Of a stretch of DNA of 64,000 nt, positions 294 to 31,015 are shown one piece after another; position 1 is the first letter of the stretch, and every line of letters starts with the position of its first letter. The position numbers and the translations under genes were made by a program. Under the pieces are notes generated by a model. That model had not been told where the DNA came from, did no database searches, and saw only the letters and a list, made by a program, of their open reading frames with translations. Source of the stretch: an uncultured delta proteobacterium. GTDB taxonomy: Bacteria > Desulfobacterota > RBG-13-43-22. Location: positions 244,602-308,601 of the forward strand of contig CAWBOS010000011.1 of assembly GCA_963790475.1 (NCBI GenBank). Direction: 5' to 3'.

Positions 294-296
294 CCC

Positions 297-1562: not shown

Positions 1563-1631
1563 TGCCTCCCTCCTCGAAAATTTGGCTTCGGCACAGGCAG
1601 GCTTAAAAGATAATTTGTCGTAAATTCAACA

Positions 1632-2783: not shown

Positions 2784-2802
2784 CGTATTTCCCTACACGA
2801 AG

Positions 2803-3348: not shown

Positions 3349-3378
3349 TGCGGGACCCCTTTTTGATGGGGTCCCGCA
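3349..3378 (-). terminator. Hairpin terminator after the DUF35 gene
   Basis: Perfect 11-bp inverted repeat tgcgggacccc / ggggtcccgca just past the stop at 3386. Confidence 0.65.
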
Positions 3379-3385
3379 TTAACCA

Positions 3386-3976: not shown

Positions 3977-3989
3977 AGTCGTTTCTCCT

Positions 3990-5426: not shown

Positions 5427-5593
5427 AGATCAATTACCTCTTCTTTCTAGTTTCTACTTTTTATCGTTTTATTTGTCTCTTCTTGCCATTTTGCCTACTA
5501 CGGCCTTCCTTGCTCTTCTTCCATACCGCCGGCCACCATAAAAACCCTTCGATTCCATTTGGGAGCCCGCAAATTTCCTTTCTAAAAATGTTA

Positions 5594-6214: not shown

Positions 6215-6588
6215 TTGATCTCCTCAATAAAAAGCAGAACGGTTGGTATATTTTTGCATAGGAAGAAAATTTGTCAAGAAAAAATCGGCCTCAGGAATTT
6301 AATGAAAGTATAAATCGTAATTCGGAAGGATAACCAAATAAAATGGACCCGTCCAAGCCTACTCCCTGATAGACCAGGTTCATGAGTTGCTCATCCATAT
6401 GGTTAAACTTTCCCTAATTTCTATAGGAAGGATTAGGAGAATAATTTGACAGAAGGGGTTTTGTTATAAGATAATTGCTCAAGGGATCAATGGGGTAATC
6501 GCCGAGCAATGAGGCCGGTACAGGTGAAAGCGGTATCTGCTCAAGGCGAGAGGTTTATTAATCCACATCCAAAAGGAGGAGGAAACCC

Positions 6589-7809: not shown

Positions 7810-8143
7810 CTTAAAGGCGCGGGCCATTATTTGGCCCGCTATCATTTCTAAAGAATATGAGTGAAGGTGAATGAAATTCTGGATTCACAAAAAGATGAGG
7901 AAGAGAAAGAGGAAGGGAGACTTAAGCGGAAAAATTTTATAACAAGAAGTGTTAGAAACGACCAAAAATGTAACTTGTTTTCCTTCCCTTTTCCGGCTCA
8001 TGCGTTGGGGTAACAGGTTAACAGGTAATGAGTTATAACAAAATAGGTGAAGTCCTCTCCCATTTAGAATCTACCAGCTCTTCTCATACCTCCTGCAAAT
8101 AGAACCTATCCGGGCTAATCTTGTCCATCTTGCGGAGGTCAAA

Positions 8144-8370
8144 ATGAAAAGACCAATTCTCCTTTTTTATCTTTTTACGGTTCTTGTTTTATTGCTCATC
8201 CCTTCTTTGTATATTCCCTAAACCTGACCTTTAACAATACCCCCACCCAAGTCTATTTCAGCCCTAACGGGGGATGCACTGAGGTTGTTATTCGGGAGAT
8301 CGACCGAGCCAAGTCAGAAATCGTAGTCCAAGCCTACTCCTTCACCTCCCAGCCAATAGCCAAGGCCCTA
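8144..8370 (+). pseudogene. 5' fragment of a PLD-family (Nuc-like) endonuclease
   Basis: GGAGG RBS + ATG at 8144, then after a frame disruption QVYFSPNGGCTEVVIREIDRAKSEIVVQAYSFTSQPIAKAL; truncated before the HKD motif. Confidence 0.7.
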
Positions 8371-8378
8371 CGAGCGCC

Positions 8379-8725
8379 GACGACCGCCTGGCTGATGGCA
8401 TTATGCAGGTCCGCCGGGTCCTCGTCCAGGTCAGGCCCGGTTATGACGGGGTTTACGGGCAGGTAAAAATATTCAAAAATGATGTTCCCCCTCCCAAACC
8501 TTCCTGTTAACTAAATCTTTTTTAGCCGCATTACTTACCAGAGCCTTTCAAAATCCCTTCAATCCCCGGAGATCCTATCTTTCAATGGTCCTAGTTCCGC
8601 CCTCCCATGTTCTTTCCTGTGTAATAGTTTTCTCTTAACGATGAATGCTCAACGCCAAACCTTCTTCCTCTCTTTCCCCTCTTTTCTTTTTTAGTAAACT
8701 TTCTGGCCAACTGAAGGGTTTAGGT
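8379..8725 (+). repeat. Mosaic repeat copy: EndoQ-like C-terminal fragment (module B, 8379-8525) + non-coding module C
   Basis: DRLADGIMQVRR..VQVRPGYDGVYGQVKIF also at ~20601 and ~30660; module C also at ~22340, ~27662 and ~30810. Confidence 0.85.
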
Positions 8726-8859
8726 GAAAACTGAGCAGATATCCTTTTTTTGAATAAATAAGCATTCGGCCCTTTTAGCTGTTTTAACAAGTTTATTTTA
8801 TGCGTCAATTTGTAAGATCAAAATTCAAAAATAGACTTGAGCCTTTCACAGAAGTAAAA

Positions 8860-9064: not shown

Positions 9065-9375
9065 TTATCAACTAACTTGTTTGTTTGATATTTTTTAGGT
9101 CTTAAGCTTTCTTCCCTTTAAATACCCTTCACTCATATTTTGTGAAGTTAACATTTCTTTGCTTGTTGATATAGGTTTCCGGGCCTTATTGCCGATTGAA
9201 GTGATAGCTTAGCAAACATTTCTTTTTTTGAAAGAATAAGTATTAAATTTTTGTTGTTTTGATTAGTAAGTTTTCCCAGGGCTGGAGCAAAAGCAGGAAA
9301 ATTCTATTAATCCTGATGGACAGATTTTTCTTCAGTTCAAGCAATTTAAATTTATTTTTTTTAAAGCGAGGTCCT

Positions 9376-12300
9376 ATGAAACTGTCTCGAAAATTGCCCG
9401 TCCTAATATTCATTTCCTTATCTTTCCTTCTCATCCTCGGCTACGTATCTTCCACAGCGGAAGATACAGAAATTTCCATCGAGGGAGATCCACGCAGCCT
9501 GGCCATCAATCCTACCACGAATCAGGCCTTGGTAGGCAGCGTTAAGCCTAATGAGATTTCGCTGGTGGATCTGGACACGGAACAGGTCATTTCCACTATC
9601 GGGGTCGGGAAAAAACCTTTGGGAGTGGCCGTGGATTTAAGCAGAAACCTCGCCCTGGTCGTCCAAAAACCCAGCCATACCTTGTCGATTGTCAGCTTGG
9701 ACACCCACCAAGTCCTGGCCAATATATCCGTTGGGAAGTCTCCCTCCAGTGTGGCTGTTTATGAAAGGGATAGCGGCCCCCATCTGGGCCTTACCGCCAA
9801 TTATAAGGATAATACGGTTTCGGTGGTCGATTTAAAACAGTTTATTGTCCTCCAAACGATCCCGGTGGGCCAGGGACCAAGGGATTTGGCCGTCGATTCC
9901 AATCTCGGTCTGGCCCTGGTGGTCAATGAAAAAGATGATACGGTATCGGGTATAGACCTGGGAAGCTTTCAGGTTACCTGGATGATTCCGTTGGGAAACA
10001 AGCCCCGGGCAGTCAGCATCAATTCGGAGACCCATCTGGCCGCCACAGCCAATACCAAAGGGAACTCTATTTCCATCATCAACCTGACTCAGTGGCAGAC
10101 CCAGACGATCCCAGTGGATAAAAACCCAGTGGACCTGACCATGAATCCCTTAGACAATACGGTCCTGGTGGCTTGTGATAAAACCCAAAGCCTTCTTCGG
10201 ATAGATTTGAATACCAACACGGCCCTTCAGGAGTATCCCTTGAACAAGAGAACTCGGGGGTTGGCCGTCAATCCCTTTACCAATATAGCCGCTGTGGTGG
10301 ATGGTCAAACAGACAGCCTGACCCTGATTCAGCTTCCCAATCCTGTGCCGGTAATTGATGCAATCAATCCCACGACTGTTGCCAGAGGCAGTCTTGGGAC
10401 CACGCTGACGATTCAGGGTTCGGGTTTTCTTAAGACCTCGTCCGTATCTGTCCACCCTTCTCCGGATTTATTGCCGGTCACCTTTATCGACAATCATCAT
10501 CTGAGCATCACAATTCCCCAGGGATTCCTGGCCAAAGCCGGGACCTGGCAGGTTGTCGTTGCCAATCCTATCCCGGAAGGGGGTGTTTCCAATTCCGCAG
10601 TCCTTACCGTAATAAATCCGGTCCCGGCCATAACCACCATTGATCCTGCTTCCACTCCGGCGGGTGGCCAAGGATTGACCCTCACGGTTTACGGCACCGG
10701 CTTCTTTCCGGACACAAGTGTTTCGGTCAATGGGGCAATCAGACCCAGCACCTATATCAGCGGAACAGAGCTTCAGGTAACCCTTGCATCAACGGATATA
10801 GCCTCTGGTGGCATCCTTTCGATCGCCGCCTCAAACTTGGCACCGGGTGGAGGGATATCGAACCCCATGTCCTTAACGGTCATGAACCCTGTACCGATTC
10901 TTTCTTCAATAGATCCGAATTCCATCAAGGCCGGCAGCCCTGGTTTTACCTTGAACTTGGCTGGCAGTAACTTTGTCACCGGCTCATCCATCCTGTTCAA
11001 CAACACATCGGTAACGGTCACCTATGTGGACAGCGCTCACCTTACGGCCTTCGTCCCGGCAACAGCCGTTGCCGCAAAAGGAACTTATCCGGTGGTGGTC
11101 ACCAATCCTGGACCGGGAGGAGGGGCTTCCGGGTCCATCGATTTTACCGTAACCCCTTCTTCCAACGTCACCCCTTTGCCGGAAGGGGCCTATGGGAAGC
11201 AGTATGAAGACCTCTTCCCTTCTGATGCCACTATTCCCGGCTATGACCCCAAACGATTCTCCTTGATCACCGGGCTGGTCAATGATGCCACCGATAATCC
11301 ATTGTCCAATGTGGTAGTAGGCATCCACAGCCATCCGGAATATGGAACGGCCCAGACCGATCCTGCGGGTAGGTTTTCCATCCCCTTGGACGGAGGGGGA
11401 ACCGTCATAATGACCTATCAGAAAGCAGGATATCTTCCTGTCCACCGCCAGGTCAATATCGGCTGGAATACCATTGCCAATACCGAGACGATTATCATGA
11501 TCCCTGAGGATGCCGCATCAACGGCTATCAGCTTTGATGGTAATGCCTCAACCATTCTGACCCACCGAAGCACTCCGACCACCGATTCCTTCGGCACCCG
11601 GTCCCTGACCATGGTTTTCACCGGTGATAATCGGGCCTTGGTGAAAGATGACCAGGGCAATGAACAGCCCCTGACCAAAATCACCGTCCGGGCCACAGAA
11701 TATCCCACTCCGAAATCCATGCCGGCCAAGCTCCCGCCCACCTCGGCCTTTACCTACTGTGCTGAGCTGGCTGTAGATGGAGCCAAGAGCGTCAGGTTTG
11801 ATAAACCAGTAGTGGTTTATGTGGATAACTTTCTAGGCTTCAATGTTGGCGAAATCGTGCCTGTGGGTTACTATGATCGGAACCGGGCTGTCTGGGTGCC
11901 CCAGAATAACGGCAAGGTGGTCCGGCTTCTCGATACCAATGGAGATAGAGTAGTCGATGCTTATACGGATGGGATTAATCAATATCCTGCCCCGGGCCTG
12001 ACCGATCCGACTCAATACCCGCCCAATGCCACCTTTTGGCGGGTGGAACATACCCATTTTACCCCCTGGGATTATAACTGGCCATATGGTTTCCCATTAG
12101 ATGCCATTTCCCCGAATCCGGAATATCCCCCTATTACTGATGGTCAATGCGCAAACGATGATAATTCTTGTATCAGCTCCTATGTAGAGAACAGAAGTCG
12201 AATCTTCCATGAAGATATCCCGATACCCGGCACGAACATGACCCTCCATTATGCGAGCAATCGGACCAAAGGACATAAATCAGTTATTACAATTCCGGCG

Positions 12301-15300
12301 AGCGGTTCGAGTGTACCGGCGACCCTGTTACGGATCATAGTCCGTATGACGGTTGCCGGCCGGACCTTTGAGACCTCGCTTTCTCCACAGCCGAATCAGA
12401 GAGGGGAATTTATTTGGGATGGCTTCGATTATTTGAACAAACCGGTTTTTGGTTCGACCATTGCCAATATCAGTATCGGGTTTGTCTACCCGACAATATA
12501 TTATTCTTCCCCAAGCAGTTTTGAACAATCATTTGGTCAAGTAGGTACTTTCATAACCGGATTCCCTGTTGCCCGTCAGGAAATGACATCCTGGAAGCAG
12601 AGCGCGGTAATAATCTATCAGGGGAACACCGAAGAAATTGCAGAAGGCTGGACGCTCTCATCTCATCATTACTTTCAACCCGCTGATCCTTATACCCTGT
12701 ATAAAGGAGACGGGACAACTCTTAAAAATAATGCCAAGGTTATCACCACCATTGCCGGTAATGGTCAGGCGGGTTTTAGTGGAGACGGAGGCCCTGCTAT
12801 TCAGGCAAATCTTTACGCCCCGGGAGGGGTAGTATTGGATGGGGTGGGGAATATTTATATAGCAGATAGTTGGAATGACCGGATAAGAAAGGTGGATTAC
12901 AACGGAATTATTACTACCGTTGCCGGTAATGGTCAGCGGGGGTACAGTGGAGACGGAGGACCTGCTACTCAGGCAAGCCTTTTCGAGCCCAGTTATGTAA
13001 CAGTAGATAATGCTGGAAATCTCTATATCGCAGACTTAGCCAACCATCGTATAAGAAAGGTAGATACAAATGGGATTATTACCACCATCGCCGGGAATGG
13101 TCAGGGGGGTCAGTATGTGCAGTTTTCTGGAGATGGAGGTCCGGCGACCCAGACGCCTCTTGGCTATATAAATGGAATAGCAGTAGATAATGCCGGGAAT
13201 CTTTACATTGCAGATGGTTGGTATAACCGTATACGGAAGGTAGATGTAAATGGAATTGTCACCACTATTGTCGGCAATGGCCAGTATGGCTACAGCGGGG
13301 ACGGAGGTCCTGCCACGATGGCACAACTTGGTGGGCCTAATGGCGTAGCAGTAGATAATGAAGGAAATCTTTTTATAGTGGATGGATACAATACGAATCG
13401 GATAAGGAAGGTGGATGCAAGCGGAATTATTACTACTATTGCCGGGAATGGGCAGGCGGGTTACAGTGGAGATGGGGGACCCGCTATCCAGGCCAGTCTC
13501 AGTGGGGCAAGTGGTATAGCAGTGGACAATTCAAAGAACATTTATATAGGAGATAGTTGGGGCAACCGCATAAGAAAGATCGATACTAACGGGATTATTA
13601 CCACCTTTGCCGGCAATGGGCAGGCAGGCTTTAGTGGAGACGGAGGTCTGGCTATTCAGGCAAATCTTCTCGGGGCAAATTACATAGCAGTCGATAGTGC
13701 AGGTGCTGTATATATAGGAGATACTGGAAATCAACGGATACGAAAGGTTTCCTATCCGGAAGCATTCAGTTCCGTCGTCAATGCCGGCGACACCGCCTTC
13801 TCCGATGAAAATGGCCAAGGTTATATCATGTATAGCACTGGTCTCCATAAATCCACTATCGACCTGGAAACAGGAAAGACCCTGCTGACCTTCGGCTATG
13901 ACTCGGAAAACAGGCTTATTTCTATTACCGACCGATTCGGCAACCAGACCACGATTCAGAGGGATGGAAACGGGGTGCCCTTGTCGCTCGCTTCACCGGA
14001 TGGGATTATTACTCGTTTGACTGTTAACAGCAGCAACCATCTTACCGCCGTCACCTACCCGGATAATTCCGCCAATACCTTTACCTACACCTCAGACGGC
14101 CTCTTGACCGATAAATACGATCCCAAGGGAAACCATTTTGTCCATCAATTCGATACCAACGGGAGGATCTCCAACGTCTTCGATCCGGAAGGCGGATCCT
14201 GGAGTTTTTCAAGAAGTGTGGATAATTCCGCGACGGTCACAGCTACCACGCAGACCGCCGAAGGGAACACCACCACCTATCAGGACCGGACCGATTCTAC
14301 CGGGGCTTATACTTCGATCACCACCAGCCCCTTTGGTTCGGTGAGCACTTTTACCCGTTCCGCCGATGGTCTGACCGAAACCGAACAGCCGGCCTGTGGT
14401 CTAAACCAGACTATGAAATACGATCTCGATCCGGCCTTCAAATATAAATATCTCAAGGAATTCGCCCAGCGCTCACCCGCCGGGCTCACCCTGCTAACCG
14501 CCGACACCAGGAATTATCAAGACACCAATGCCGATAGTGTGCCTGATTTGATAACCAAAACCCTCGGTATAAACGGCAGGAACTGGACATTGATCAACAA
14601 CACCCATACCGGTATCCTGACCAGCACCTCGCCCTTGGGGAGGACCATAACCCGGAACTACAATCCTTTGAATCTGCTTACGCAGAACATGACAGTGACC
14701 GGTCTTCTCCCCTTAACTTTGGGATATGACACCAGAGGAAGGCTGACCACCACCACAACCGGAAGCAGGGCATCGACGATCACCTATGACAATCGGGGCA
14801 ATATCGAAAGCCTGGCCACCCCGGATGGGAAGACATTCCATTATACTTATGATTCAATGGGCAGATTGAAAAACCAGACCCTGCCTGACACTACGATGAT
14901 AAGTTATGATTACGACTCAAACGGCAACATGACCGTGCTGACCAATCCCCGAACCATCAGTCATGGCTTCGAATACACCGGCGTCAACCTGCGCAGGACC
15001 ATGACCACGCCCTTGTCCGGGAATTATCAGTACACCTATGACAAGGAACGAAATCTGAAGTCAATCCTCTTCCCTTCCGGTAGACAAATCAAAAATACTT
15101 ATCTGAATGGTCTTCTATCAGCAACGACCACCCCGGAAGGAGTGACCAGCTATACATATACCTGTGGCACAAACCTTCAGGATGCGACCAGAGACACAGA
15201 GAAGGTAGCCTATACCTATGATGGCTCTTTGTTGAAAACCGATACGCGGACAGGATTGCTTAATCAGATCATCGAATATGGTTATGACAACGATTTCCGT

Positions 15301-16665
15301 CTTATCTCTTTAAACTATGCCGGCGCATCTCAGATCTTAACTTATGATAATGATGGTCTGTTAATCGGAGCCGGGTCATTCACCATCACCCGCAACGCCC
15401 TGAATGGATTAGCAGGAACTGTATCTGGCGGTACCCTGACCAATACCCGGACCTTCAGTGGTTATGGAGAGCTGGATGGCTCTGTATACCTGGTAGGAGG
15501 GATGAGCAAGTACAGCTATTCTTTGACCCGCGACCTGGCCGGCAGGATTACACAAAAGATTGAGAACGTTGATGGGATAACCGATACCTACGATTATTCT
15601 TACGATACCAACGGCAGGCTGAACGAAGTCAAAAAGAATAACATGGTCGTGGAATCCTATACCTATGATCCCAATGGCAATCGCCTCACTGAAATAAACA
15701 CTCTCCGTGGTATTAACCGTCCCTATACTTTTTCGGATGAAGACCATATAATCAATGCAGGAGGTGAACCCTATCAGTTCGATGTTGATGGATTTATGAC
15801 CCAGAAGACGACCGCCGCCGGGAGCTTGGGAACTTCCTTTTCGTCAAGAGGCGAACTCCTCTCTGCTGCTTTACCTTCCGGTACCGTCATCACTTACGAC
15901 CACGACCCCATGGGCCGGAGAATAGCCAAAAGGGTGAACGGATCTATAATCGAGAAATATTTATGGAAAGACGCCATCACTTTATTGGCCGTCTATGATT
16001 CCTCCAACAGCCTGATAATACGTTTCAACTATGCCTATGGACGACTGCCGGTATCGATGACTTACAATGGCATCACCTATTACCTCGCCTATGACCAGAT
16101 CGGATCTCTTAAAGCGGCTATCGATACCTCAGGTAACGTCGTTAAAAAGATTGACTACGATTCCTTCGGCAGTATAATTTCAGACACGAATCCATCAATG
16201 AGCATTCCATTTGCATTCGCCGGAGGCCTTCATGACCGCGATACTAATCTCGTACGCTTCGGCGCCCGCGACTATGATCCTTCTATTGGCCGCTGGACCG
16301 CCAAAGACCCGATTGATTTTGGGGGAGGGGATACAAATCTGTATGGGTATGTGATGAATGATCCGGTGAATATGAATGACCCCTTTGGCTTATATTGTGG
16401 AAGCGGTATTTCTGAGTATTTTGTCCCAGATTCATGGTGGGGACAGTATAGTTTTAGTAATGCATGCAAAAAACATGATGATTGTTATGATACTTGTGGA
16501 AAAAAGAAACAAGAATGTGATAATAATTTTCTAAGAGACATGCGCCAAGAATGTTCTAAACTGGGAGGATACTGGCGGCAAGATTGCTCCGCTACATCAT
16601 ACATATACTATCAAGCAGTCGATAAGCTTGGTGGCCCAGCTTATAAATCTTCGCAAAACAAATAA
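9376..16665 (+). CDS. Secreted teneurin-like YD/RHS-repeat protein (YVTN propeller, 3x IPT/TIG, NHL propeller, YD shell, RHS core, PLA2-like C-terminal toxin)
   Basis: ATG at 9376 with GAGG RBS and signal peptide (the ORF track starts at 9259); NPVP..(S/T)I.P IPT repeats; ITTIAGNGQAGFSGDGGPA repeats; many YxYD repeats; core ARDYDPSIGRWTAKDPI...NDPVNMNDPFGL. Confidence 0.9.
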   Translation: MKLSRKLPVLIFISLSFLLILGYVSSTAEDTEISIEGDPRSLAINPTTNQALVGSVKPNEISLVDLDTEQVISTIGVGKKPLGVAVDLSRNLALVVQKPSHTLSIVSLDTHQVLANISVGKSPSSVAVYERDSGPHLGLTANYKDNTVSVVDLKQFIVLQTIPVGQGPRDLAVDSNLGLALVVNEKDDTVSGIDLGSFQVTWMIPLGNKPRAVSINSETHLAATANTKGNSISIINLTQWQTQTIPVDKNPVDLTMNPLDNTVLVACDKTQSLLRIDLNTNTALQEYPLNKRTRGLAVNPFTNIAAVVDGQTDSLTLIQLPNPVPVIDAINPTTVARGSLGTTLTIQGSGFLKTSSVSVHPSPDLLPVTFIDNHHLSITIPQGFLAKAGTWQVVVANPIPEGGVSNSAVLTVINPVPAITTIDPASTPAGGQGLTLTVYGTGFFPDTSVSVNGAIRPSTYISGTELQVTLASTDIASGGILSIAASNLAPGGGISNPMSLTVMNPVPILSSIDPNSIKAGSPGFTLNLAGSNFVTGSSILFNNTSVTVTYVDSAHLTAFVPATAVAAKGTYPVVVTNPGPGGGASGSIDFTVTPSSNVTPLPEGAYGKQYEDLFPSDATIPGYDPKRFSLITGLVNDATDNPLSNVVVGIHSHPEYGTAQTDPAGRFSIPLDGGGTVIMTYQKAGYLPVHRQVNIGWNTIANTETIIMIPEDAASTAISFDGNASTILTHRSTPTTDSFGTRSLTMVFTGDNRALVKDDQGNEQPLTKITVRATEYPTPKSMPAKLPPTSAFTYCAELAVDGAKSVRFDKPVVVYVDNFLGFNVGEIVPVGYYDRNRAVWVPQNNGKVVRLLDTNGDRVVDAYTDGINQYPAPGLTDPTQYPPNATFWRVEHTHFTPWDYNWPYGFPLDAISPNPEYPPITDGQCANDDNSCISSYVENRSRIFHEDIPIPGTNMTLHYASNRTKGHKSVITIPASGSSVPATLLRIIVRMTVAGRTFETSLSPQPNQRGEFIWDGFDYLNKPVFGSTIANISIGFVYPTIYYSSPSSFEQSFGQVGTFITGFPVARQEMTSWKQSAVIIYQGNTEEIAEGWTLSSHHYFQPADPYTLYKGDGTTLKNNAKVITTIAGNGQAGFSGDGGPAIQANLYAPGGVVLDGVGNIYIADSWNDRIRKVDYNGIITTVAGNGQRGYSGDGGPATQASLFEPSYVTVDNAGNLYIADLANHRIRKVDTNGIITTIAGNGQGGQYVQFSGDGGPATQTPLGYINGIAVDNAGNLYIADGWYNRIRKVDVNGIVTTIVGNGQYGYSGDGGPATMAQLGGPNGVAVDNEGNLFIVDGYNTNRIRKVDASGIITTIAGNGQAGYSGDGGPAIQASLSGASGIAVDNSKNIYIGDSWGNRIRKIDTNGIITTFAGNGQAGFSGDGGLAIQANLLGANYIAVDSAGAVYIGDTGNQRIRKVSYPEAFSSVVNAGDTAFSDENGQGYIMYSTGLHKSTIDLETGKTLLTFGYDSENRLISITDRFGNQTTIQRDGNGVPLSLASPDGIITRLTVNSSNHLTAVTYPDNSANTFTYTSDGLLTDKYDPKGNHFVHQFDTNGRISNVFDPEGGSWSFSRSVDNSATVTATTQTAEGNTTTYQDRTDSTGAYTSITTSPFGSVSTFTRSADGLTETEQPACGLNQTMKYDLDPAFKYKYLKEFAQRSPAGLTLLTADTRNYQDTNADSVPDLITKTLGINGRNWTLINNTHTGILTSTSPLGRTITRNYNPLNLLTQNMTVTGLLPLTLGYDTRGRLTTTTTGSRASTITYDNRGNIESLATPDGKTFHYTYDSMGRLKNQTLPDTTMISYDYDSNGNMTVLTNPRTISHGFEYTGVNLRRTMTTPLSGNYQYTYDKERNLKSILFPSGRQIKNTYLNGLLSATTTPEGVTSYTYTCGTNLQDATRDTEKVAYTYDGSLLKTDTRTGLLNQIIEYGYDNDFRLISLNYAGASQILTYDNDGLLIGAGSFTITRNALNGLAGTVSGGTLTNTRTFSGYGELDGSVYLVGGMSKYSYSLTRDLAGRITQKIENVDGITDTYDYSYDTNGRLNEVKKNNMVVESYTYDPNGNRLTEINTLRGINRPYTFSDEDHIINAGGEPYQFDVDGFMTQKTTAAGSLGTSFSSRGELLSAALPSGTVITYDHDPMGRRIAKRVNGSIIEKYLWKDAITLLAVYDSSNSLIIRFNYAYGRLPVSMTYNGITYYLAYDQIGSLKAAIDTSGNVVKKIDYDSFGSIISDTNPSMSIPFAFAGGLHDRDTNLVRFGARDYDPSIGRWTAKDPIDFGGGDTNLYGYVMNDPVNMNDPFGLYCGSGISEYFVPDSWWGQYSFSNACKKHDDCYDTCGKKKQECDNNFLRDMRQECSKLGGYWRQDCSATSYIYYQAVDKLGGPAYKSSQNK
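12740..13750 (+). repeat. Six ~170-bp intragenic NHL-type tandem repeats
   Basis: ITT(I/V/F)AGNGQ.G(F/Y)SGDGG.A.QA.L repeated six times in the RHS protein. Confidence 0.9.
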
Positions 16666-16774
16666 TCTAAAATGCGAAAAATTTCGCAAAATTTGAGTAT
16701 ATACAATAAAAAAACATTTTATTAAGTTATTGTTATTTAAAAAAATAAATATTGATTGTAAGTTTGAGGACAAT

Positions 16775-17056
16775 ATGAAAGGGTTTATTGGTTTTATAGT
16801 TTTTATTTTTTTAGATATTATTTTTTGTGTTGCTATTAGCATAAAAAGAAAGAAAATTTCACAAAAAATTGATTTTGTGGCCATTTTTTTATCGGCAATT
16901 GCAACTACTATTTTATTTCATATCATCGCTGTGATCGAAGATTTTAAGAGCAGCCAATGGGTTATGATTTCGATTCCAGTAGCTTTCATCTTTGGCTTAC
17001 TTATCTCAAGCTTAACATCTATTATCTATCAAGGCTTTTTGCAGAAAACAAAATAA
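16775..17056 (+). CDS. Small AT-rich membrane protein, candidate immunity protein
   Basis: GAGGA RBS + ATG at 16775; about three hydrophobic helices; follows the toxin tip and shares its low GC. Confidence 0.65.
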   Translation: MKGFIGFIVFIFLDIIFCVAISIKRKKISQKIDFVAIFLSAIATTILFHIIAVIEDFKSSQWVMISIPVAFIFGLLISSLTSIIYQGFLQKTK

Positions 17057-17130: not shown

Positions 17131-17390
17131 GGGGTCACCCATCAAAAGGCCACCGTCGTGAGAAAAAGGTCGTCCGTATGGAAGAAAGTAAAGGAGGCAA
17201 GTCTCCGTTTGACTTATTAAACCGACACCGGCACTAAAGGAATATGAGCAGGTCAATGAGCATAGAATATGAGGGAGCCTGATATCATGCGATGAACCGG
17301 GGGAGGAGATCGGATCGGATTTTTAAAGACCGGATCGATTATCGGTCGTTCATCGACTTGATGGAGGATATAACCCGGTTTTGGGGTGCC
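17131..17390 (+). repeat. Mosaic repeat copy: module A (17131-17187) + RAYT transposase 5' remnant (module D)
   Basis: ATG at 17244 gives MSRSMSIEYEGA*YHAMNRGRRSDRIFKDRIDYRSFIDLMED, matching the RAYT N-terminus MSRPLRIEY.GAWYHVMNRG; copies at 22225 and 27317. Confidence 0.8.
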
Positions 17391-17466
17391 ATAATTCATA
17401 AGGGTTTTGTTTTCTTGGAGCAATAACCATGAAGGGTTAAAAAAAGTTGAAAGGCAGGGGCAGGAA

Positions 17467-17907
17467 TTAAAGAGTCTCGATAGCGGGATAGGTCTCAAGA
17501 ACCGTTGACCAAATTAATTCGGCGATAAGTAGATTAATTCCATTATTTCCTGAGAAACCCCAGATGCCACAATGCGAGTCATCGGACTCTGTAGGTTCAT
17601 GGGTCACTCTCAAATGATAGCCTCCTTGGCTCCCTTCCTCAACATTCATACACATATCCCCCACATTTAATATTGCAATCAGATCTTTCTTTTTTAAATT
17701 GAACGGTATAGCGGCATATCGAATTCGAAGTTCGGCAATCTCTAATAGTCGATCCGGACAACTAAGAAATTCAAGCCAATTGACTGAGAGGTGATTATCT
17801 GTATTACGGGGCAAAAAGGCTACACCAAGGATCTGGCCATCTTCTACTCCCTTGCCATAGCAAAGGCGAGCAATATGGTCAGTAGGGGGGACTTTATCGC
17901 CCTTCAC
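17467..17907 (-). CDS. Hypothetical protein, possible ADP-ribosyltransferase/RES-like fold
   Basis: HIARL...AF.PR...HLSVNW...EP....SHCGI pattern; start overlaps the upstream stop. Confidence 0.6.
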   Translation of the reverse strand: MKGDKVPPTDHIARLCYGKGVEDGQILGVAFLPRNTDNHLSVNWLEFLSCPDRLLEIAELRIRYAAIPFNLKKKDLIAILNVGDMCMNVEEGSQGGYHLRVTHEPTESDDSHCGIWGFSGNNGINLLIAELIWSTVLETYPAIETL

Positions 17908-18640
17908 GCCCAGCCCATTTTAGTACTCCCCATGGCTTGACCTTCTCTAAGAGGGTATCGGGGTTGACTGTGCCAGATATACAAATTTTTTTCTCTATCC
18001 GAGGAGAGGGAGAGGGGGCAATAATCGCGAAGTGAGCGAACCCTGAAGCCAAAAAATGAATGCTGAAGACCGATGCCTGGCTTTCTTTCCATGAGGCATA
18101 AATCTCATTAGTAGGTGTTAACCCAATTGCTGGCTTCTTAAGGTAATAGCTATGCATCTGTAAAAAACTATAGAAATTTAGCAAAGACTTTAAAGAAATT
18201 CCGTTACTTACTGGGTCTTCTTCCTTTACATCTTCTAACAACTCAAAAAGTCGCTGAGCAACAACCTCTCGTTCCGGAATTGATTTAGTATCTCTAATAT
18301 TCCTGATTATGTCTGACACCTGGTTTTCATTGCTTTCTTGTGTACTCAATTCTGTGGTAGGGTTTTCAACTCTTGAATAAAATTGCCATCTTGGCGCTTC
18401 TGCTGTTTCTTGGACAGTTGGAGTAGAACTTTCAATCCTAAGGTTTTTGGGAAGTGTCGTTTTAAGGAATATACTTGTCGCATCGGCAGAATACAAGAGT
18501 GAGGGGGAGTTTAATTCTTGAACAGTCCCAAATTGACCATTTGATATAGGCTCCGTCCAACTTCCCACAGCTTTCAAACTAAATATGGCTGCTGGATTTT
18601 CAAATTTTTTTTCTGACTGGTTGACCCCATACTTATACAT
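17894..18640 (-). CDS. Hypothetical protein (low-complexity N-half, folded C-half with KPAIGLTPTNEIYASW)
   Basis: ATG at 18640 overlaps the TIGR04255 stop (ATGTATAA); long ORF inside a coupled operon. Confidence 0.7.
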   Translation of the reverse strand: MYKYGVNQSEKKFENPAAIFSLKAVGSWTEPISNGQFGTVQELNSPSLLYSADATSIFLKTTLPKNLRIESSTPTVQETAEAPRWQFYSRVENPTTELSTQESNENQVSDIIRNIRDTKSIPEREVVAQRLFELLEDVKEEDPVSNGISLKSLLNFYSFLQMHSYYLKKPAIGLTPTNEIYASWKESQASVFSIHFLASGFAHFAIIAPSPSPRIEKKICISGTVNPDTLLEKVKPWGVLKWAGREGR

Positions 18641-19451
18641 GTTCTCGTTCCCATTCTTCCTGTTGAATCGTATCGGTTGTGATATCAGCAAAACCGGATA
18701 CTATCCATTCATGTGCTGTATCAAACCAGTCACGTATTCCAGTCCGGTCTTTAGTCGTACCAATCCCCCTTGCCGTGAAATCTAAAACAAAGATAGGGAC
18801 GTTGCCTTCAATAAGTTTAGCTTGTTTGATTGTTGCAACAAGCTCCCCTTTCTTTGCTGGAAGTGCAAATTTTAGGTTCCAAGAGATATCGATAGGGTTA
18901 GACAAAAAACGTGGAGGCTGATTCCAAAAGAAGTCTCTAAAAATTCTTTGTAACTCCTCTACTGTCTCGCGCTCAGCTTTTTTGGGGATATGATTGATGT
19001 AGGTAAGCTCACACTCAATTGGGGTAAACTCCCCAAGTTGGAATTCCTCAAAAAAAGCCTGTAGCGTTCCGAGAACCTCTTCGAATCTTAAAATAACATA
19101 TTCGTATCGAGGATAGATATCATCACGTTGACGCCAGTTGAAATAGATGCGGTCAGGTTGGAATTGAACAAGTTGATTCCCCGGCTGATTAATAAACCAT
19201 ACTCTGGGAAGGGGGGCTCCAGTAACCTTATCTAATAAAAGCTCACCATGAACTGAGACTAAGGGAGCTGCGTGCTGAACTTGCGGATATTCTCCTCTAA
19301 ATTTATCCCAAAGAAGACCAATATGGGGTAAAGTAAAATTTTGAGAAGGATTAAATCGAATTCCACATACCACTTCCGTGACAGGGGGGCGCTTATAGCT
19401 AGGGAGCTTTCTATTAAAAGGAGATACCAACTTGTTATCTCGTGGATTCAT
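18633..19451 (-). CDS. TIGR04255-family protein
   Basis: LPSYKRPPVTEVVCGIRF, RVWF, LVQFQPDRIYFNWR, YPRY, ELTYINHI and WFDTAHEWI...F.DIT motifs. Confidence 0.85.
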   Translation of the reverse strand: MNPRDNKLVSPFNRKLPSYKRPPVTEVVCGIRFNPSQNFTLPHIGLLWDKFRGEYPQVQHAAPLVSVHGELLLDKVTGAPLPRVWFINQPGNQLVQFQPDRIYFNWRQRDDIYPRYEYVILRFEEVLGTLQAFFEEFQLGEFTPIECELTYINHIPKKAERETVEELQRIFRDFFWNQPPRFLSNPIDISWNLKFALPAKKGELVATIKQAKLIEGNVPIFVLDFTARGIGTTKDRTGIRDWFDTAHEWIVSGFADITTDTIQQEEWEREHV

Positions 19452-19630
19452 ATGCTAAAATTATAATTATGAAAGATCAGCATGTCAAATAAATTCGTTT
19501 AGTCGGTTAAACAGAGTTAGGCCATACGAAGTCTTTGATCTCACATAGGATACGGAAAATCTGCCGCTTGTGAGGGCATAGGTCGGGCCAAGTTAATGGA
19601 TGAAATTGTGACTAATTTATTGTAGTCATA

Positions 19631-19750
19631 GGGCCACCCATTAAAAGGCGACGGTCAAGATGAAAAGGGTCCCCGTATGCAAGAAAGAACATTTTTCTTG
19701 CAGTGCAAGGACTGTTAGAGCTGCCCCAGGTTTCCAACGTTTTCACTCTT
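19631..19750 (+). repeat. Mosaic repeat module A copy
   Basis: gggccacccattaaaagg...ccgtatgcaagaa...ttttcttgcagtgca...ctgccc..g.tttccaacgt shared with 30468-30588 and partly with 17131-17187. Confidence 0.75.
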
Positions 19751-20002
19751 GCTGAAATTTCAAAGGTTAATGTGTCAGCGATAACTTCACTGCACCAATC
19801 ACTCATCAGGATCAAGAAATCTTTTGCGGTTTCCTGATGATTTTATGTTCTCCCTTACCCATCAAGAGGTTAGAAACTTGAGGCCTTTTCAGAGCAAGTC
19901 GTGGGTCTTGGGGTCGCATATTGAAGGTACACAAGTTTAGGAAATGAAGGGGACGTGGCCTTTATCCCCAGTGAGCATTGCATTAGCCCGTTGAAAAATA
20001 GC

Positions 20003-20032
20003 TTGACATGTGCATACGAATGTACATATACT
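20003..20032 (+). promoter_or_regulatory. Sigma-70 promoter of brnTA with palindromic operator
   Basis: TTGACA-N18-TATACT; the spacer holds the inverted repeat tgtgcat-acga-atgtaca. Confidence 0.75.
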
Positions 20033-20038
20033 TTTCTT

Positions 20039-20305
20039 GTGTTCGAGTGGGACCCAAACAAAGACCGACTGAACCAGAAAAAGCACGGAGTGGGTTTCGC
20101 GGATACCTTCGCCGTATTTGAAGATCCGAACGCTCTCACCATGGAAGACTACGAACACGGTGAAGAACGTCAGGTGACTGTCGGAATGGATTGCTTCGGC
20201 AGAATTCTTGTCGTGGTTTATCGGTGGCGTGACGAAAACATCCGAATCATATCTGCGAGGAAAGCAACAAGATCAGAGGTAAAAGGCTATGAAACTCAAT
20301 TATGA
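20039..20305 (+). CDS. brnT: BrnT family type II toxin (RNase)
   Basis: FEWDPNKDRLNQKKHGVGF...IRIISARKAT..E..Y; GTG start at 20039 preferred over the track start. Confidence 0.9.
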   Translation: MFEWDPNKDRLNQKKHGVGFADTFAVFEDPNALTMEDYEHGEERQVTVGMDCFGRILVVVYRWRDENIRIISARKATRSEVKGYETQL

Positions 20306-20543
20306 TTTTAGTAAGGCTCGGCGGGGAGCAGTGATTCCTCCCTCGGGCAACAAAGTCAGGATTACCATTCGACTGGACAGGGACATTATAGAATGGTTCA
20401 AGTCGCGGGTGGAAGAATCTGGGGGCGGAAATTATCAGACCCTGCTTAACAATGCCCTCCATGAATACATCACGAATCGGGACGAGACTATCGAAAAGGT
20501 CCTTCGACGAGTTGTCCGCGAGGAATTGCATGCTGTCCGCTGA
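20289..20543 (+). CDS. brnA: BrnA family antitoxin
   Basis: YDFSKARRG...KVRITIRLD.DII.WFK...NYQTLLN.AL; overlaps brnT. Confidence 0.9.
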   Translation: MKLNYDFSKARRGAVIPPSGNKVRITIRLDRDIIEWFKSRVEESGGGNYQTLLNNALHEYITNRDETIEKVLRRVVREELHAVR

Positions 20544-20999: not shown

Positions 21000-21185
21000 A
21001 TGGAAGACCTTACGCCCAAACAGATTCGTCAAATGTTCCGAGATTTCGGCCTGGAAGGAGAAGAGCAACGAGAATCATTTCGCCCACTGGCCCCACCCAC
21101 AGGAGAAGACACTAAAGCGTCGGGGCAATTGTTCATTCGTATCGTGCCGTCGACTTCTCTCGAAGAGGAGCAAGAGTATGCCTAA
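21000..21185 (+). CDS. Small acidic hypothetical protein coupled to the Clp-fold protease
   Basis: GGAGG RBS; stop overlaps the ATG at 21178. Confidence 0.65.
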   Translation: MEDLTPKQIRQMFRDFGLEGEEQRESFRPLAPPTGEDTKASGQLFIRIVPSTSLEEEQEYA

Positions 21186-22119
21186 CTGGAACACCATCCT
21201 GGAAGATATTAGAAAACGCGGTGGTACTCATGACGTTGTACGACGTGAGTATTTGTACAAACTACATAAATTGACCGGACGCAATGTCATTGTGTACTAC
21301 TCAGGATGGCTCCAGAAGCCTGGGTTATTGGGTTCTGACATCAACGACGCAGACAAAAATGGGTTTATGACTGCAATCCATCAACTGGATCGCTCAAAAG
21401 GACTTGATCTTATCTTACATACGCCTGGCGGAGGAACGGCAGCTACAGAGTCTCTGGTTGATTATCTCTACTCTATGTTCAATACGAATATAAGAGCTAT
21501 TGTCCCGCAGATTGCATTGTCCGCTGGCACAATGATCGCTTGCGCCTGTCGCGAGATTCTTATGGGTAAACATTCTAGCCTCGGACCAATTGATCCCCAA
21601 TTTGGCAACGTTCCTGCCCATGGAATCATTGAAGAATTTAAGCGCGCCCACGAAGAAATCAAAGCCGACCCCTCCAAAATCCCAGTATGGCAACCTATCA
21701 TTGCAAAGTACCAGCCCACCCTAGTTGGCGAGTGTGAGAAGGCTATTAAATGGTCTATCAATATGACCCGGGAGTGGTTGCTCCGGGGCATGCTTGCAGG
21801 AAAGCCTGATGCTGAAGCAAAGGCTGATGCCATCTTAAATGAACTCGTTGATCATTCGCTCACATTATCTCATGCACGGCACCTTTCCGCGAGCAAATGT
21901 AAAAGTATCGGTCTTGAAGTTGTCATGCTTGAAGATGATCATAAACTCCAGGAAGCGGTGCTTTCAGTGCACCATGCCCTGATTCACACACTTTCCGCAA
22001 CCGGGGCATTCAAAATTATCGAGAACCATAAGGGTGTAGCTTTTATTCTGATATTTCAGCCTGCTATCGTTCAAGGTCCCGGGGGTAAACAACAATTAGC
22101 AGAAGCTCCAATGGCATAA
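21178..22119 (+). CDS. SDH-family Clp-fold serine protease (S49-like)
   Basis: GLDLILHTPGG, VPQIALSAGTMIA, MGKHSSLGPIDPQ and SHARH motifs. Confidence 0.85.
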   Translation: MPNWNTILEDIRKRGGTHDVVRREYLYKLHKLTGRNVIVYYSGWLQKPGLLGSDINDADKNGFMTAIHQLDRSKGLDLILHTPGGGTAATESLVDYLYSMFNTNIRAIVPQIALSAGTMIACACREILMGKHSSLGPIDPQFGNVPAHGIIEEFKRAHEEIKADPSKIPVWQPIIAKYQPTLVGECEKAIKWSINMTREWLLRGMLAGKPDAEAKADAILNELVDHSLTLSHARHLSASKCKSIGLEVVMLEDDHKLQEAVLSVHHALIHTLSATGAFKIIENHKGVAFILIFQPAIVQGPGGKQQLAEAPMA

Positions 22120-22218: not shown

Positions 22219-22503
22219 AAAGGGGTCTCCGATTGACTTATTAAACCGATACAGGGACTAAAGGAACATGAGCAGGCCACTGTGGATAGAATATGAGGGA
22301 GCCCGATATCATGTGATGAACCAAGGGAAGGCGGTTGCATCCCCCGGAGATCCTTTCTTTCAATGGTCCCAGTTCCGCTCTCCCATCTTCCGTCCCTGTC
22401 TAATTTTTTTGCCACCGGACGATGAACGCTCAACACCGAACATCTTCTCCTTTTTTCCTTGCCCCTCTCCCCTCTTTTCTTTTTAGTAAACGTTCCTGTC
22501 AAA
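22219..22503 (+). repeat. Mosaic repeat copy: RAYT left end / 5' remnant fused to module C
   Basis: MSRPLWIEYEGARYHVMNQG, then from ~22340 cccggagatcct..ctttcaatggtcc.agttccgc...gatgaacgctcaac...ttttagtaaac. Confidence 0.8.
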
Positions 22504-26247: not shown

Positions 26248-27291
26248 ATGGGCAAACAGCAGCAAATTACCGAACCATGTGAACTTCTCGACGAAAACGG
26301 GTTGTTGACAAAACCGGGGTATGCCACAAGGGCCTTCTGGCGCTATGACCGAAACAAAATCAAGGCTGGCTGGTATCGGATTAAGGAATGGGATTATTAT
26401 GCGGTCCTTTGCCAGGAAGAAGGATTCGGTATCAGCTTTGCCATGGCCGATCTGGGTTATATCGGGTCGGCCGGCGTCGGTTGGCTTGATTTTAAGGAAA
26501 AAAACTACAGGCATATCGGATCGACGTTGAATTTACCCAAAGGGAAAATGGGATTCCCTTCAACCCCGGATAAAGGAGAAGTGGCCTTCGCCGACAAAAA
26601 GATAAGGCTCAAGTATATCGTGTCCGGCCCCGAAAGGATTATTCAGGTTGAAGCGCCGGGGTTCATCGATAATAAAGGGCGAAAGGGTCTCAAAGGAGAG
26701 CTGAGATTATACCAAGACCCGGAAATGGACAGCATGGTCATCGCCACTTCCTGGGAGGAAAATCGAAAGGCTTTTTATTACAATCAAAAAACTAATTGTA
26801 TGCCGGCCAGGGGAACCATTACCATAGGCGACCGGCCGTACGAGTTCAATCCGCAATCCTGTTTCGGGGTACTGGACTGGGGGCGGGGGAACTGGACCTA
26901 TAAAAACAGGTGGTATTGGGGATCGGCCTCGGGTCTGCTCAATGGGCACCCCTTCGGCTGGAATATCGGCTATGGTTTCAGCGATCGTTCACCGGCCACG
27001 GAAAATATGCTGTTTTATGATAATAAGGCTCACAAACTGGAAGAGGTGGCTTTTCATATCAACACCGACGATTACCTGGCACCCTGGAAATTTGCCAGCA
27101 ACGACGGGCGGTTTGAGATGGACTTCACTCCTATTCTTGACCGGCATGCCGCTTCGGAAATTTTGTTTTTAAAGACCGTTCAACACCAAGTCTTCGGGAC
27201 CTTCGATGGTAAGGCGGTGCTTGACGACGGAACGGTACTTCAAGTCTCCAATTTCCTCGGGTTTGCCGAAGATGTATTGAACTGGTGGTGA
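26248..27291 (+). CDS. DUF2804-family protein
   Basis: RIKEWDYY, FYYNQK, LDWGRGNW...WYWGS and TVQHQVFG.F.G motifs. Confidence 0.85.
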   Translation: MGKQQQITEPCELLDENGLLTKPGYATRAFWRYDRNKIKAGWYRIKEWDYYAVLCQEEGFGISFAMADLGYIGSAGVGWLDFKEKNYRHIGSTLNLPKGKMGFPSTPDKGEVAFADKKIRLKYIVSGPERIIQVEAPGFIDNKGRKGLKGELRLYQDPEMDSMVIATSWEENRKAFYYNQKTNCMPARGTITIGDRPYEFNPQSCFGVLDWGRGNWTYKNRWYWGSASGLLNGHPFGWNIGYGFSDRSPATENMLFYDNKAHKLEEVAFHINTDDYLAPWKFASNDGRFEMDFTPILDRHAASEILFLKTVQHQVFGTFDGKAVLDDGTVLQVSNFLGFAEDVLNWW

Positions 27292-27310
27292 TTTTTTACA
27301 TAGTAATAAT

Positions 27311-27733
27311 TGGGTTAAGTCTCCGGTTGACTTATAAACCGATATGGATACCAAAGGAATATGAGGGAACCTGGTATCATGTGATGAACCAGGGGAGGAG
27401 ATCGGATCGGATTTTTAAAGACCGGAACGATTATCGGTTGTTGATTGACTTGATGGAGGATATAACCTGGGGTGCCCTGCTTTGACGAGATTGACGATTT
27501 AGCTGAGGGAGGGAAGACAAAAACAAAATGCAAAAAAATGGACCCCCGACTGTGAACTTCATTGAACGGCTGTCTCGGCCCCTGCCAGAAACCAAGACAA
27601 GGCCGTCTTCAAAGACCGCCAAGACTGTGAATTTTTTCTTGAGGTAAAAAGCTAAACATTATAGATCCGCCCTCCATGTTCTGTCCCGGTGTTAAGATTT
27701 TTTCTCCTGACGACGAACGATGAACGCGCAACG
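27311..27733 (+). repeat. Mosaic repeat copy: RAYT 5' remnant, a second RAYT-like scrap (27570-27645) and partial module C (27662-27733)
   Basis: EYEGTWYHVMNQGRRSDRIFKDRNDY; SRPL..NQDKAVFKDRQDCEFFLEV; tccgccctccatgttct...acgatgaacgc. Confidence 0.75.
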
Positions 27734-30467: not shown

Positions 30468-31015
30468 GGGGTCACCATTAAAAAGCCACCGTCTAGAGAA
30501 AAGGTTTTCCGTATACAAGAAGAAGCTTTTTTCTTGCAGTGCATAGGCATGATAGAACTGCCCAAGATTTCCAACGTCCTTACCTTTCGTCAGATAGAAC
30601 GAGGCCGGTCCGAGTTTTGGATTTTAATGGATCTTGAGGAAAAAGAAATGCGGTCTTTATGGACGGCCGCCTGGCCGATGGAATTATGCAGGTCCGCCGG
30701 GGCCTGGTCCAGTTCAAGCCCGGCTATGACGGGGTTTACGGGCAGACAAAAATTTCCCGAAATGATGTCCTCCTGCCAAAACCTTCCTCCCAACTCACAC
30801 TTTCTTACCGCCATATTTACCAGAGCCTTTCACAAGCCTGGCATTCCCCGGAGGTCCTTTTTTCATGTAACAAATCCCGACCTCCATGTTCTTTCCCTGT
30901 GTAATGGTTTTCTCTGAACGATGAACGCTCAACGCCGAATGTCTTTTCCTTCTCCCTTGCCCCCCTTCCCCTCTTTTTTTTTGGTAAACTTTCCGGCCAT
31001 GGCCCGGTTTAGGAT
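30468..31015 (+). repeat. Longest mosaic repeat copy: modules A + B + C
   Basis: Module A 30468-30588; EndoQ-like IERGRSEFWILMDLEEKE..GRLADGIMQVRRGLVQFKPGYDGVYG..KPSSQLTL; module C to ~31015. Confidence 0.85.

Follow-up and report, generated by a model that had tools for sequence, protein, structure and literature searches.

A candidate toxin–antitoxin-type module with a conserved two-gene core and a replaceable TIGR04255 first gene in an uncultured Desulfobacterota bacterium

The toxin–antitoxin–chaperone (TAC) systems rely on a SecB-like chaperone, which stabilises their antitoxin via a chaperone-addiction (ChAD) element and is displaced by phage proteins; HigC recognises ChAD by 'aromatic molecular patterns' (10.1101/2024.02.24.581848, PMC11618068). 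The RnlA and LsoA toxins of the RnlAB anti-phage toxin–antitoxin (TA) system contain two tandem TBP-like domains, which the accessible passages of PMC8266594 describe as substrate-binding modules. In the accessible portion of PMC12839542 (2026), DUF499/DUF1156 systems are called BREX-related and are described as often embedding auxiliary or backup effectors. Here, a three-gene locus, p1–p2–p3, was analysed in a 64,000-nt stretch of DNA (the window) from an uncultured delta proteobacterium (Desulfobacterota, RBG-13-43-22; contig CAWBOS010000011.1, positions 244602–308601). A sequence-only reading had proposed the locus as a candidate three-component TAC-like defence operon, composed of a TIGR04255 protein, an uncharacterised middle protein, and a toxin resembling an ADP-ribosyltransferase (ART). 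The comparison presented below places the conserved core of the locus in p2 and p3, and the locus is treated as a candidate TA-type module.

The conserved p2–p3 pair and its predicted complex

The three genes were located on the reverse strand, and their stop and start codons overlapped, as had been proposed. According to the list of open reading frames (ORFs) of the window, p1 (18633–19451, 272 aa) started with ATG and p3 (17467–17907, 146 aa) with GTG. The ORF of p2 (17894–18691) began at a TTG; because the closest homologues measure 251 aa, the start was placed at the ATG at 18640, which gave a protein of 248 aa (17894–18640). The p1 stop and the p2 ATG had 8 nt in common, and the p2 stop and the p3 GTG had 14 nt in common.

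The distribution of the module was examined by a scan of one genome per species, covering 185,579 species, which gave 199 pattern matches, 196 of them encoding a relative; the p3 family is large and sporadically distributed. All locus counts rest on the best 80 of those matches, which corresponded to 79 loci, and genes in these loci were called from ORFs of at least 50 aa with iterated hidden Markov models (HMMs). The phyla included Thermodesulfobacteriota, Nitrospirota, Planctomycetota, Chloroflexota, Acidobacteriota, and Pseudomonadota. p2 was found directly upstream of p3 in 78 of the 79 loci, and the remaining locus (L051) begins inside p3 at a contig end. When counted per gene, p2 was present for 82 of 83 p3 copies, and the conserved unit is therefore the p2–p3 pair and not the trio. 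Since the pair recurs in 78/79 loci and in many phyla, the gene arrangement exceeds chance. The complete TIGR04255–p2–p3 trio, which had been expected to be conserved, was observed in 43 of the 79 loci, and the first gene is replaceable or dispensable.

The pair was also multiplied within genomes. Dehalococcoidia carried tandem paralogous pairs of p3 and a short form of p2, two or three within a few kb, with three pairs in L040 (4561–8992) and multiple copies in L061 and L066. In the p3 tree, such within-genome copies were not each other's closest relatives. An orphan p2 was observed in another Dehalococcoidia locus (L044, 2871–3368). The only archaeal locus (L056, 1759–2202), from a Nitrosopumilus metagenome-assembled genome, had a full-length p3 (E = 1e-52) only when one in-frame stop was ignored, and this copy may be a pseudogene or an assembly error.

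Homologues of p3 were abundant and unnamed. A word-indexed search retained 104 homologues from 128 candidates, all of ~140 aa and none with a name, and an exhaustive profile search returned 1860, 973, and 162 cluster representatives at E ≤ 1e-3, 1e-10, and 1e-30, respectively. Nearly all of the 150 family matches listed were stand-alone proteins of ~140 aa. Two longer forms were found, neither fused to a toxin-delivery domain, which is weak evidence. One of them (P0140, 377 aa) was a natural fusion of the p2 C-terminal domain with p3, and the other (P0141, 298 aa), the only one of its form seen, contained a p3 domain followed by a ~160-aa C-terminal extension without matches.

The alignment of 41 of the 104 p3 homologues (A1) showed 11 invariant residues, Cys16, Phe31, Ser41, Val42, Asn43, Trp44, Leu45, Arg53, Asp109, Ser111, and His112, and a conserved N-terminus, MKGD..P, throughout the family. 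Residues His11, Arg14, Arg34, Glu46, Glu56, His103, and Pro105 were among the nearly invariant ones. The motifs HIAR (residues 11–14), LSV (40–42), and SHCGI (111–115), from which an Arg–Ser–His pattern had been read, were present in p3 and were the most conserved positions of the family; as they coincide with invariant or nearly invariant positions (Arg14 nearly so, Ser41 and His112 strictly), they are taken as its signature motifs.

The p2 protein consisted of two unlike halves, as the sequence-only reading had described. Homologues of p2 numbered 35, and 32 sequences entered the alignment (A2). The conserved C-terminal domain comprised residues ~108–248 (17894–18319 including the stop codon, reverse strand) with the invariant residues Arg130, Leu134, Ser152, Pro170, Trp184, Phe196, and Gly223, which are, as judged from the alignment, mostly structural. 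The N-terminal extension (residues 1–107; 18320–18640, reverse strand) was poorly conserved and barely alignable. In p2 of the window, Ser, Thr, Glu, and Gln made up 39% of residues 1–107 and 24% of the C-terminal half, and the extension is probably disordered.

The complex of p2 residues 108–248 (alignment A2) and p3 (alignment A1) was modelled with ipSAE values of 0.89, 0.89, and 0.88, and the three controls gave 0.00 each. The runs shared at least 97% of their contacts, and the pLDDT of the partner was at least 89. In the calibration, the mark was reached by 58 of 80 solved complexes and by 2 of 110 mismatched pairs, counts that apply only roughly to this pair as self-made alignments were used. 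The modelling that had been suggested as a check thus came out in favour of an interaction, and the p2 C-terminal domain and p3 are predicted to bind tightly. Named in the predicted interface were the invariant residues Arg130, Leu134, and Gly223 of p2, and residues 17–35 and the conserved helix 122–135 of p3. The p2 C-terminal domain, the predicted partner of p3, is a candidate antitoxin outside the known families.

The AlphaFold2 model of p3 was confident (pLDDT 94.4, pTM 0.89) and had the element order β1 (residues 11–16), α, β2 (40–44), two helices, β3 (76–81), α, β4 (100–103), β5 (112–116), α, and β6. Residue Arg14 was located on strand 1, Ser41 on strand 2, and His112 at strand 5. With 11 invariant residues and this placement of Arg, Ser, and His on strands 1, 2, and 5 of the model, p3 looks enzyme-like, and it is the candidate enzymatic effector or toxin of the locus.

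When the p3 model was compared with the Protein Data Bank (PDB) by Foldseek, 10 of the top 15 matches were Tpt1/KptA RNA 2'-phosphotransferases from three organisms, with E values of 0.1–0.4, probabilities of 0.5–0.8, TM scores of 0.37–0.44, and identities of 3–12%, all of which are weak. A further weak match was CC0527 (PDB code 2o0q; E = 0.39), and the remaining matches listed had probabilities below 0.15. We take CC0527 to be a DUF952 protein, and both DUF952 and Tpt1/KptA to belong to the ART superfamily. ART enzymes carry a catalytic Arg–Ser–Glu or His–Tyr–Glu triad. Residues Arg14 on strand 1 and Ser41 on strand 2 of p3 match the expected Arg and Ser positions of the former; no conserved Glu was located at strand 5, and Asp109, Ser111, and His112 were found in its place. 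No Tse2 chain was among the 50 Foldseek matches listed for p3. In a viral structure library, one unnamed 149-aa viral protein matched p3 (E = 1e-4), the others were weak, and a Tpt1-like giant-virus protein ranked only 21st. At the sequence level, a Pfam scan of 41 family members at E ≤ 10 returned no ART-type family, and the family profile aligned to E. coli KptA by hhalign with a probability of 0.4%. When p1, p2, p3, and the profiles A1, A2, and A3 were searched against the sequences of solved structures in the PDB, the matches were at chance level only. The ART fold that had been proposed for p3 is thus weakly supported by the structural comparison and has no counterpart in these sequence searches. 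An ART-like, NAD-dependent p3 is a lead and not a finding, possible but on balance doubtful. In the ESM Atlas, p3 and p2 residues 108–248 fell in unnamed clusters only; the nearest named clusters, DUF6098 (0.92) and Atu0565 (0.79), were set aside as probably chance.

The first gene and the N-terminal extension of p2

The first gene encodes, as had been recognised, a TIGR04255 protein, which matched the NCBIfam profile with E = 3.8e-25 and 89.2 bits, against a cut-off of 30, over positions 2–250 of 252. No Pfam family matched p1 at E ≤ 1, and no paper naming TIGR04255 was found in a full-text search that did not extend to supplements. The model of p1 (pLDDT 90.3, pTM 0.88) was composed of two β-α-β4-α repeats. 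Foldseek against the PDB returned AdoMetDC/prozyme chains and many TBP chains with probabilities of 0.92–1.0 and E values of 6e-6 to 2e-3. For TBP the E values were 8e-5 to 2e-3, but the global TM score was only 0.22–0.30, with a root-mean-square deviation of ~10 Å. Among the 50 matches listed, which were mostly TBP and AdoMetDC with few others, there was no SecB chain. The p1 model is accordingly not SecB-like, in disagreement with the chaperone fold that had been looked for, and we cautiously regard it as a TBP-like β-sheet platform of two repeats (a pseudo-dimer). The conserved polar residues Glu26, Gln96, Gln98, Asn105, Arg107, Glu148, Tyr151, and Asn153 of p1 were located on strands, at alternate positions. 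The isoelectric point (pI) of p1 was 5.9, with a family median of 6.3.

A TIGR04255 gene was directly upstream of p2 in the 43 loci of the trio, 41 of them recognised by phmmer and two (L009 and L042) by NCBIfam. In 17 of the 79 loci, the first position was occupied by a different protein of ~215–276 aa, named p1b, with a median pI of 5.2. Neither Pfam nor NCBIfam gave a match for the 14 p1b proteins scanned, and PHROGs, PADLOC, Pfam, and NCBIfam gave nothing for two of them. The possibility that p1b is a divergent TIGR04255 protein was rejected at an hhalign probability of 1%, and the two were treated as separate families, which may share a fold.

The presence of a first gene went together with the length of p2. 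Behind a TIGR04255 gene, p2 had 171–289 aa (n = 43), and behind p1b 215–310 aa (n = 16, and L055). In the pairs with no upstream gene (n = 20), most of which belong to Chloroflexota, p2 had 136–165 aa in 18. Each of the 59 pairs accompanied by an accessory gene thus had a long p2 with the N-terminal extension, and among the 20 pairs that stood alone, 18 had a short p2 that lacks it. This pattern suggests, at the level of gene content, that the accessory protein works through the N-terminal extension of p2. The best argument that the link is functional is that two unrelated accessory families both accompany an extended p2.

The extension itself contained little that was shared. In the N-terminal halves of p2 behind a TIGR04255 gene (n = 44), only scattered positions were semi-conserved: an aromatic residue near position 20, most commonly Tyr (28/44), a Trp near position 42 (25/44), Glu78 (30/44), and Phe95 (27/44). 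When the extensions of the p1 and p1b classes were compared, they grouped only among close relatives, and no similarity was seen between the two classes.

On a Mycobacterium paragordonae plasmid (NZ_CP025547.1; L080, 3986–5725), a TIGR04255 gene precedes two hypothetical genes that overlap and encode 180 and 142 aa; this cassette has a MobF relaxase gene on one side and the gene of a type IV coupling protein on the other. The comparison of these two small genes with p2 and p3 gave E > 0.2 with the HMMs and hhalign probabilities of 2% and 0.1%, respectively; homology was thus not detected, although the aligned stretches fell on the expected motifs. The plasmid cassette has the same layout as the locus; in the fuller version of the reading given below, which is unlikely, TIGR04255 proteins in general may be the sensor subunits of a wider set of three-gene cassettes.

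Genomic context of the locus

A sigma-70-type promoter, TTGACA–17 nt–TATAAT, was found at 19460–19488 on the reverse strand by a pattern scan, with 12 of 12 consensus positions. Because it ends 8 nt from the p1 ATG, the operon transcript would be leaderless or nearly so. The same scan of the window found no terminator-like site behind p3; no Rfam family and no tRNA was found within the window. The operon, described earlier as AT-rich, had a GC content of 41.8%, compared with 47.8% for the window and 49.3% for the RHS gene, and the three genes are only modestly AT-rich.

The mosaic repeats reported on both sides of the operon are real but small, and the description held only in part. A 58-nt repeat on the left (17131–17188) had 81% identity with a copy upstream of the promoter (19631–19687) and recurred at 30468–30521. 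Another repeat, of 104 nt (17201–17304, forward strand), recurred at 22225–22328 (88%) and 27357–27470 (92%), and covered the 5'-terminal part of a short, degenerate gene fragment (17244–17426) with an in-frame TGA. This fragment was one of three truncated forward-strand copies of a single gene start of 45–70 codons (17244–17426, 22268–22486, and 27285–27485), which shared ..EYEG..YH.MN.G... and a conserved leader before each, the first with the in-frame TGA. The copies presumably recall the N-terminus of IS200-like or REP-associated transposases, an assignment that Pfam does not confirm.

On the forward strand to the left of the operon, an RHS/YD-repeat protein of 2468 aa (9259–16665) ended in a phospholipase A2-like C-terminus, the last ~80 residues matching the families PF06951 (2e-9) and PF09056 (4e-7). 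The gene is followed by a small hydrophobic membrane ORF of 108 aa (16730–17056, forward strand) in a stretch of 29–34% GC, which may be the immunity gene of the RHS protein. About 500 nt beyond the operon promoter, a BrnT toxin gene (19955–20305, PF04365, 3e-27) overlapped a BrnA antitoxin gene (20289–20543, PF14384, 5e-11), both on the forward strand. A ClpP-like serine protease of the SDH type (21178–22119, forward strand, PF01972, 4e-22) stood alone between BrnT/BrnA and a repeat copy.

In other genomes, the nearest called gene on each side was considered over the 79 loci (141 proteins, PADLOC at E ≤ 1e-5), and 33 of these proteins, in 28 loci, matched PADLOC models. They included type IIG restriction-modification systems (L004, L016, L020), type I (L011) and type III (L015, L027) methylases, BrxA (L014), a CBASS cyclase with a 2TM effector (L028), and matches to type II restriction-enzyme models (L064, L075, L076, L078); some further matches were generic, such as RtcR-type activators and helicases. 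The proximity to defence genes that had been anticipated was thus observed, and genes of restriction-modification, BREX-type, or CBASS systems were frequent neighbours of the module. In three Chromatiaceae (L025, L034, and L036, positions ~1–8850), the module was situated within an operon of a DUF499 ATPase, a DUF7680 protein, and a DUF1156 methylase (PADLOC HmaB), inserted between the latter two. L034 and L036 carry a p1b gene, which is missing from L025, with a gap of ~490 nt there.

Interpretation and comparison with known systems

The locus can be read as a TA-type module in which p3 is the effector, p2 its inhibitor, and p1 a protein that controls p2, a reading to which we give an even chance of being right. 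p3 would be a small enzyme of an undescribed family and, as the effector, would probably arrest growth. The folded C-terminal domain of p2 would bind p3 and most likely keep it inactive, as in type II TA systems. p1 would engage the N-terminal extension of p2 so as to hold, stabilise, or monitor p2, or to sense a trigger, and p3 would be freed when this hold is lost, for example in phage infection. Such a module would be a functional analogue of the TAC systems built from unrelated parts. We infer in this way the toxicity of p3, the direction of neutralisation, the p1–p2 contact, any NAD-dependent chemistry, and any anti-phage role. The features associated with type II pairs, two small adjacent genes in the same orientation that are kept together, were observed with a 14-nt overlap and in 78/79 loci, and the neighbours in the window, a BrnT/BrnA pair and an RHS toxin gene, support a TA reading. 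A fuller version would make the family a widespread tripartite abortive-infection system, with TBP-like p1 or p1b as an infection sensor on a disordered p2 tail, whose displacement releases p3, a minimal NAD+-dependent transferase of the Tpt1-like kind with nucleic acid or some other central component as its target; taken jointly, these propositions are unlikely to hold.

Several observations weigh against a TA-type module. Searches of Pfam, NCBIfam, and PADLOC (E ≤ 1) and of PHROGs (E ≤ 0.1) gave no match for p2 or p3, whether to a toxin, antitoxin, chaperone, or defence model or to any other. No helix-turn-helix, ribbon-helix-helix, or other DNA-binding domain was recognised in p2 with Pfam and NCBIfam, its Atlas neighbours being unnamed; a DNA-binding domain for autoregulation is common, though not universal, in type II antitoxins. 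The pI of p3 was 5.0 (family median 5.7) and that of the p2 C-terminal domain 8.7; an acidic p3 and a basic p2 domain are the reverse of the charge pattern of many type II pairs. By tblastn, p3 was not found in the plasmid or phage collections; p2 was likewise not found in plasmids, and p1 not in phages. Arg34 was the only member of the conserved polar cluster of p3 named in the predicted interface, the residues not named being uncertain, and occlusion of the active site is therefore not evident. The link between accessory gene and extension had two exceptions, L025 and L049, in which a long p2 was present with no detectable accessory gene and no remnants of one upstream at E ≤ 0.01. The association was clustered on the p3 tree, which needs at least 10 class changes and has only three independent contrasts on well-supported branches; the sign test on these ~3 contrasts gave p = 0.5–1, and it could not reach significance with so few. 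As there was no matched control, the count of defence neighbours is suggestive only, and many Chloroflexota copies had housekeeping neighbours.

Three other explanations account for parts of these observations. The locus could encode a non-toxic heteromeric enzyme, in which p3 is a housekeeping or stress enzyme, for example a Tpt1-like transferase acting on nucleic acids or NAD metabolites, p2 its obligate subunit for regulation or targeting, and p1 or p1b a substrate-binding accessory. The best structural neighbours of p3, Tpt1/KptA, are indeed repair enzymes and not toxins, most invariant residues of p3 lie outside the named interface with p2, the acidic p3 is in keeping with such an enzyme, the polar residues on the strands of p1 are arranged as in a ligand-binding site, and the genes beside the Dehalococcoidia copies encode enoyl-CoA hydratase, hydrolase, and ABC-permease proteins. 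A housekeeping function is less easily reconciled with the sporadic distribution (196 matches in 185,579 species genomes), the tandem paralogous pairs within one genome (three in L040), the frequent restriction-modification, BrxA, and CBASS neighbours and the insertion into DUF499/DUF1156 operons, the mosaic context of the window with BrnT/BrnA, RHS, and repeat fragments, and the stop/start overlap typical of TA pairs. We consider the enzyme improbable, and a candidate TA-type module the preferred reading.

The two other explanations retain a TA system and redistribute the roles. In omega–epsilon–zeta and PaaR–PaaA–ParE, which are tripartite TA systems, the first gene encodes a transcriptional regulator, and p1 could similarly place a TBP-like saddle on the DNA of the operon promoter, providing the DNA-binding activity that is missing from p2. 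The dominance of TBP chains among the p1 Foldseek matches listed (probability 0.92–1.0), the position of p1 as the first gene directly behind a consensus promoter, and a p2 without detectable DNA-binding domain would all fit. Yet p1 is mildly acidic (pI 5.9) and p1b more so (median 5.2), the TM score to TBP is only 0.22–0.30 at ~10 Å, the presence of p1 or p1b follows a feature of a protein, the N-terminal extension of p2, and two-gene versions exist without the first gene, so that a regulator is quite unlikely. The roles of p2 and p3 could also be reversed, with a harmful p2 and with p3 as an enzyme that neutralises p2 or reverses its effect; enzymatic antitoxins are known from DarTG and from type VII systems. 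The charge pattern, a basic p2 C-terminal domain and an acidic p3, agrees with a reversal, as does the enzyme-like conservation of p3. Opposed to it, Arg130 and Ser152 are, besides Trp184, the only conserved polar residues of the p2 C-terminal domain, and because they are so few the domain does not look catalytic; moreover, the orphan p2 of L044 and the p3 with an in-frame stop of L056, a single case each, fit p3 as the dangerous partner. A reversal of roles is very unlikely.

If the preferred reading of a TA-type module is correct, the p3 family (1860 representative clusters, with no Pfam model) and its obligate partner constitute a new toxin–antitoxin family, TIGR04255 gains its first functional context, and the TAC design of an antitoxin tail with a guardian protein evolved at least two more times, with different guardians, which is relevant to the way in which bacteria couple the detection of infection to suicide effectors. 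A p3 that is a minimal Tpt1-like toxin would add a further kind to the NAD-dependent effectors known so far. Should p3 prove harmless, the locus would be a conserved operon of the ordinary sort with an unassigned role.

p3 recalls Tpt1/KptA in its conserved Arg and Ser, located on the first two strands of the model, and in a conserved polar loop that precedes strand 5. In p3, however, the usual catalytic Glu is replaced by Asp109/Ser111/His112, and the protein is a single domain of 146 aa. RnlA resembles the locus as a component of a TA or defence system with tandem TBP-like domains, whereas in RnlA these domains are fused to a HEPN RNase toxin and here they form a separate gene beside an unrelated pair; no RnlA chain was among the 50 p1 Foldseek matches listed. 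The module in L025, L034, and L036 occupies the kind of position described for the auxiliary effectors of BREX-related systems. The effectors catalogued there, unlike p3, are nucleases (HEPN, PIN, Schlafen, TOPRIM, HNH, and others), and the accessible main text of PMC12839542 contains none of the terms 'ADP-ribosyl', 'TBP', 'DUF7680', or 'KptA'. Literature searches on TBP-like proteins in connection with antitoxins and on DUF1156/DUF499 systems, supplements not included, found no description of this module.

The TAC systems (HigBAC and CmdTAC) were the closest in layout. They share with the present locus a set of three co-transcribed genes, among them one for a small effector enzyme and one for a partner that neutralises it and bears a poorly ordered segment, features which here are predicted from sequence; a third protein accompanies the extra segment of the partner, and the neighbourhoods are of a defence type. 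The semi-conserved aromatic residues of the p2 extension loosely recall the aromatic patterns of HigC and ChAD. The parts differ. The third protein is a TIGR04255 protein with a TBP-like two-repeat model in place of a SecB-like chaperone, the gene order is accessory–partner–effector, and some loci have an unrelated protein in the accessory position, or none. TAC antitoxins carry their chaperone-addiction element at the C-terminus, whereas p2 has its extension at the N-terminus. With PADLOC and Pfam, p1, p2, and p3 matched none of the models for TAC components, and the PADLOC check that had been proposed returned no model at all for the three proteins. The locus therefore does not belong to TAC by its third protein or by any of the sequence tests, and of the proposed analogy the recurrent three-gene unit and the variable N-terminal half of p2 are supported, with the extension at the opposite end and the parts unrelated. 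The module most likely represents a TA-like family not described before, whose third component is of a new type; its layout is analogous to that of TAC and is built from unrelated parts.

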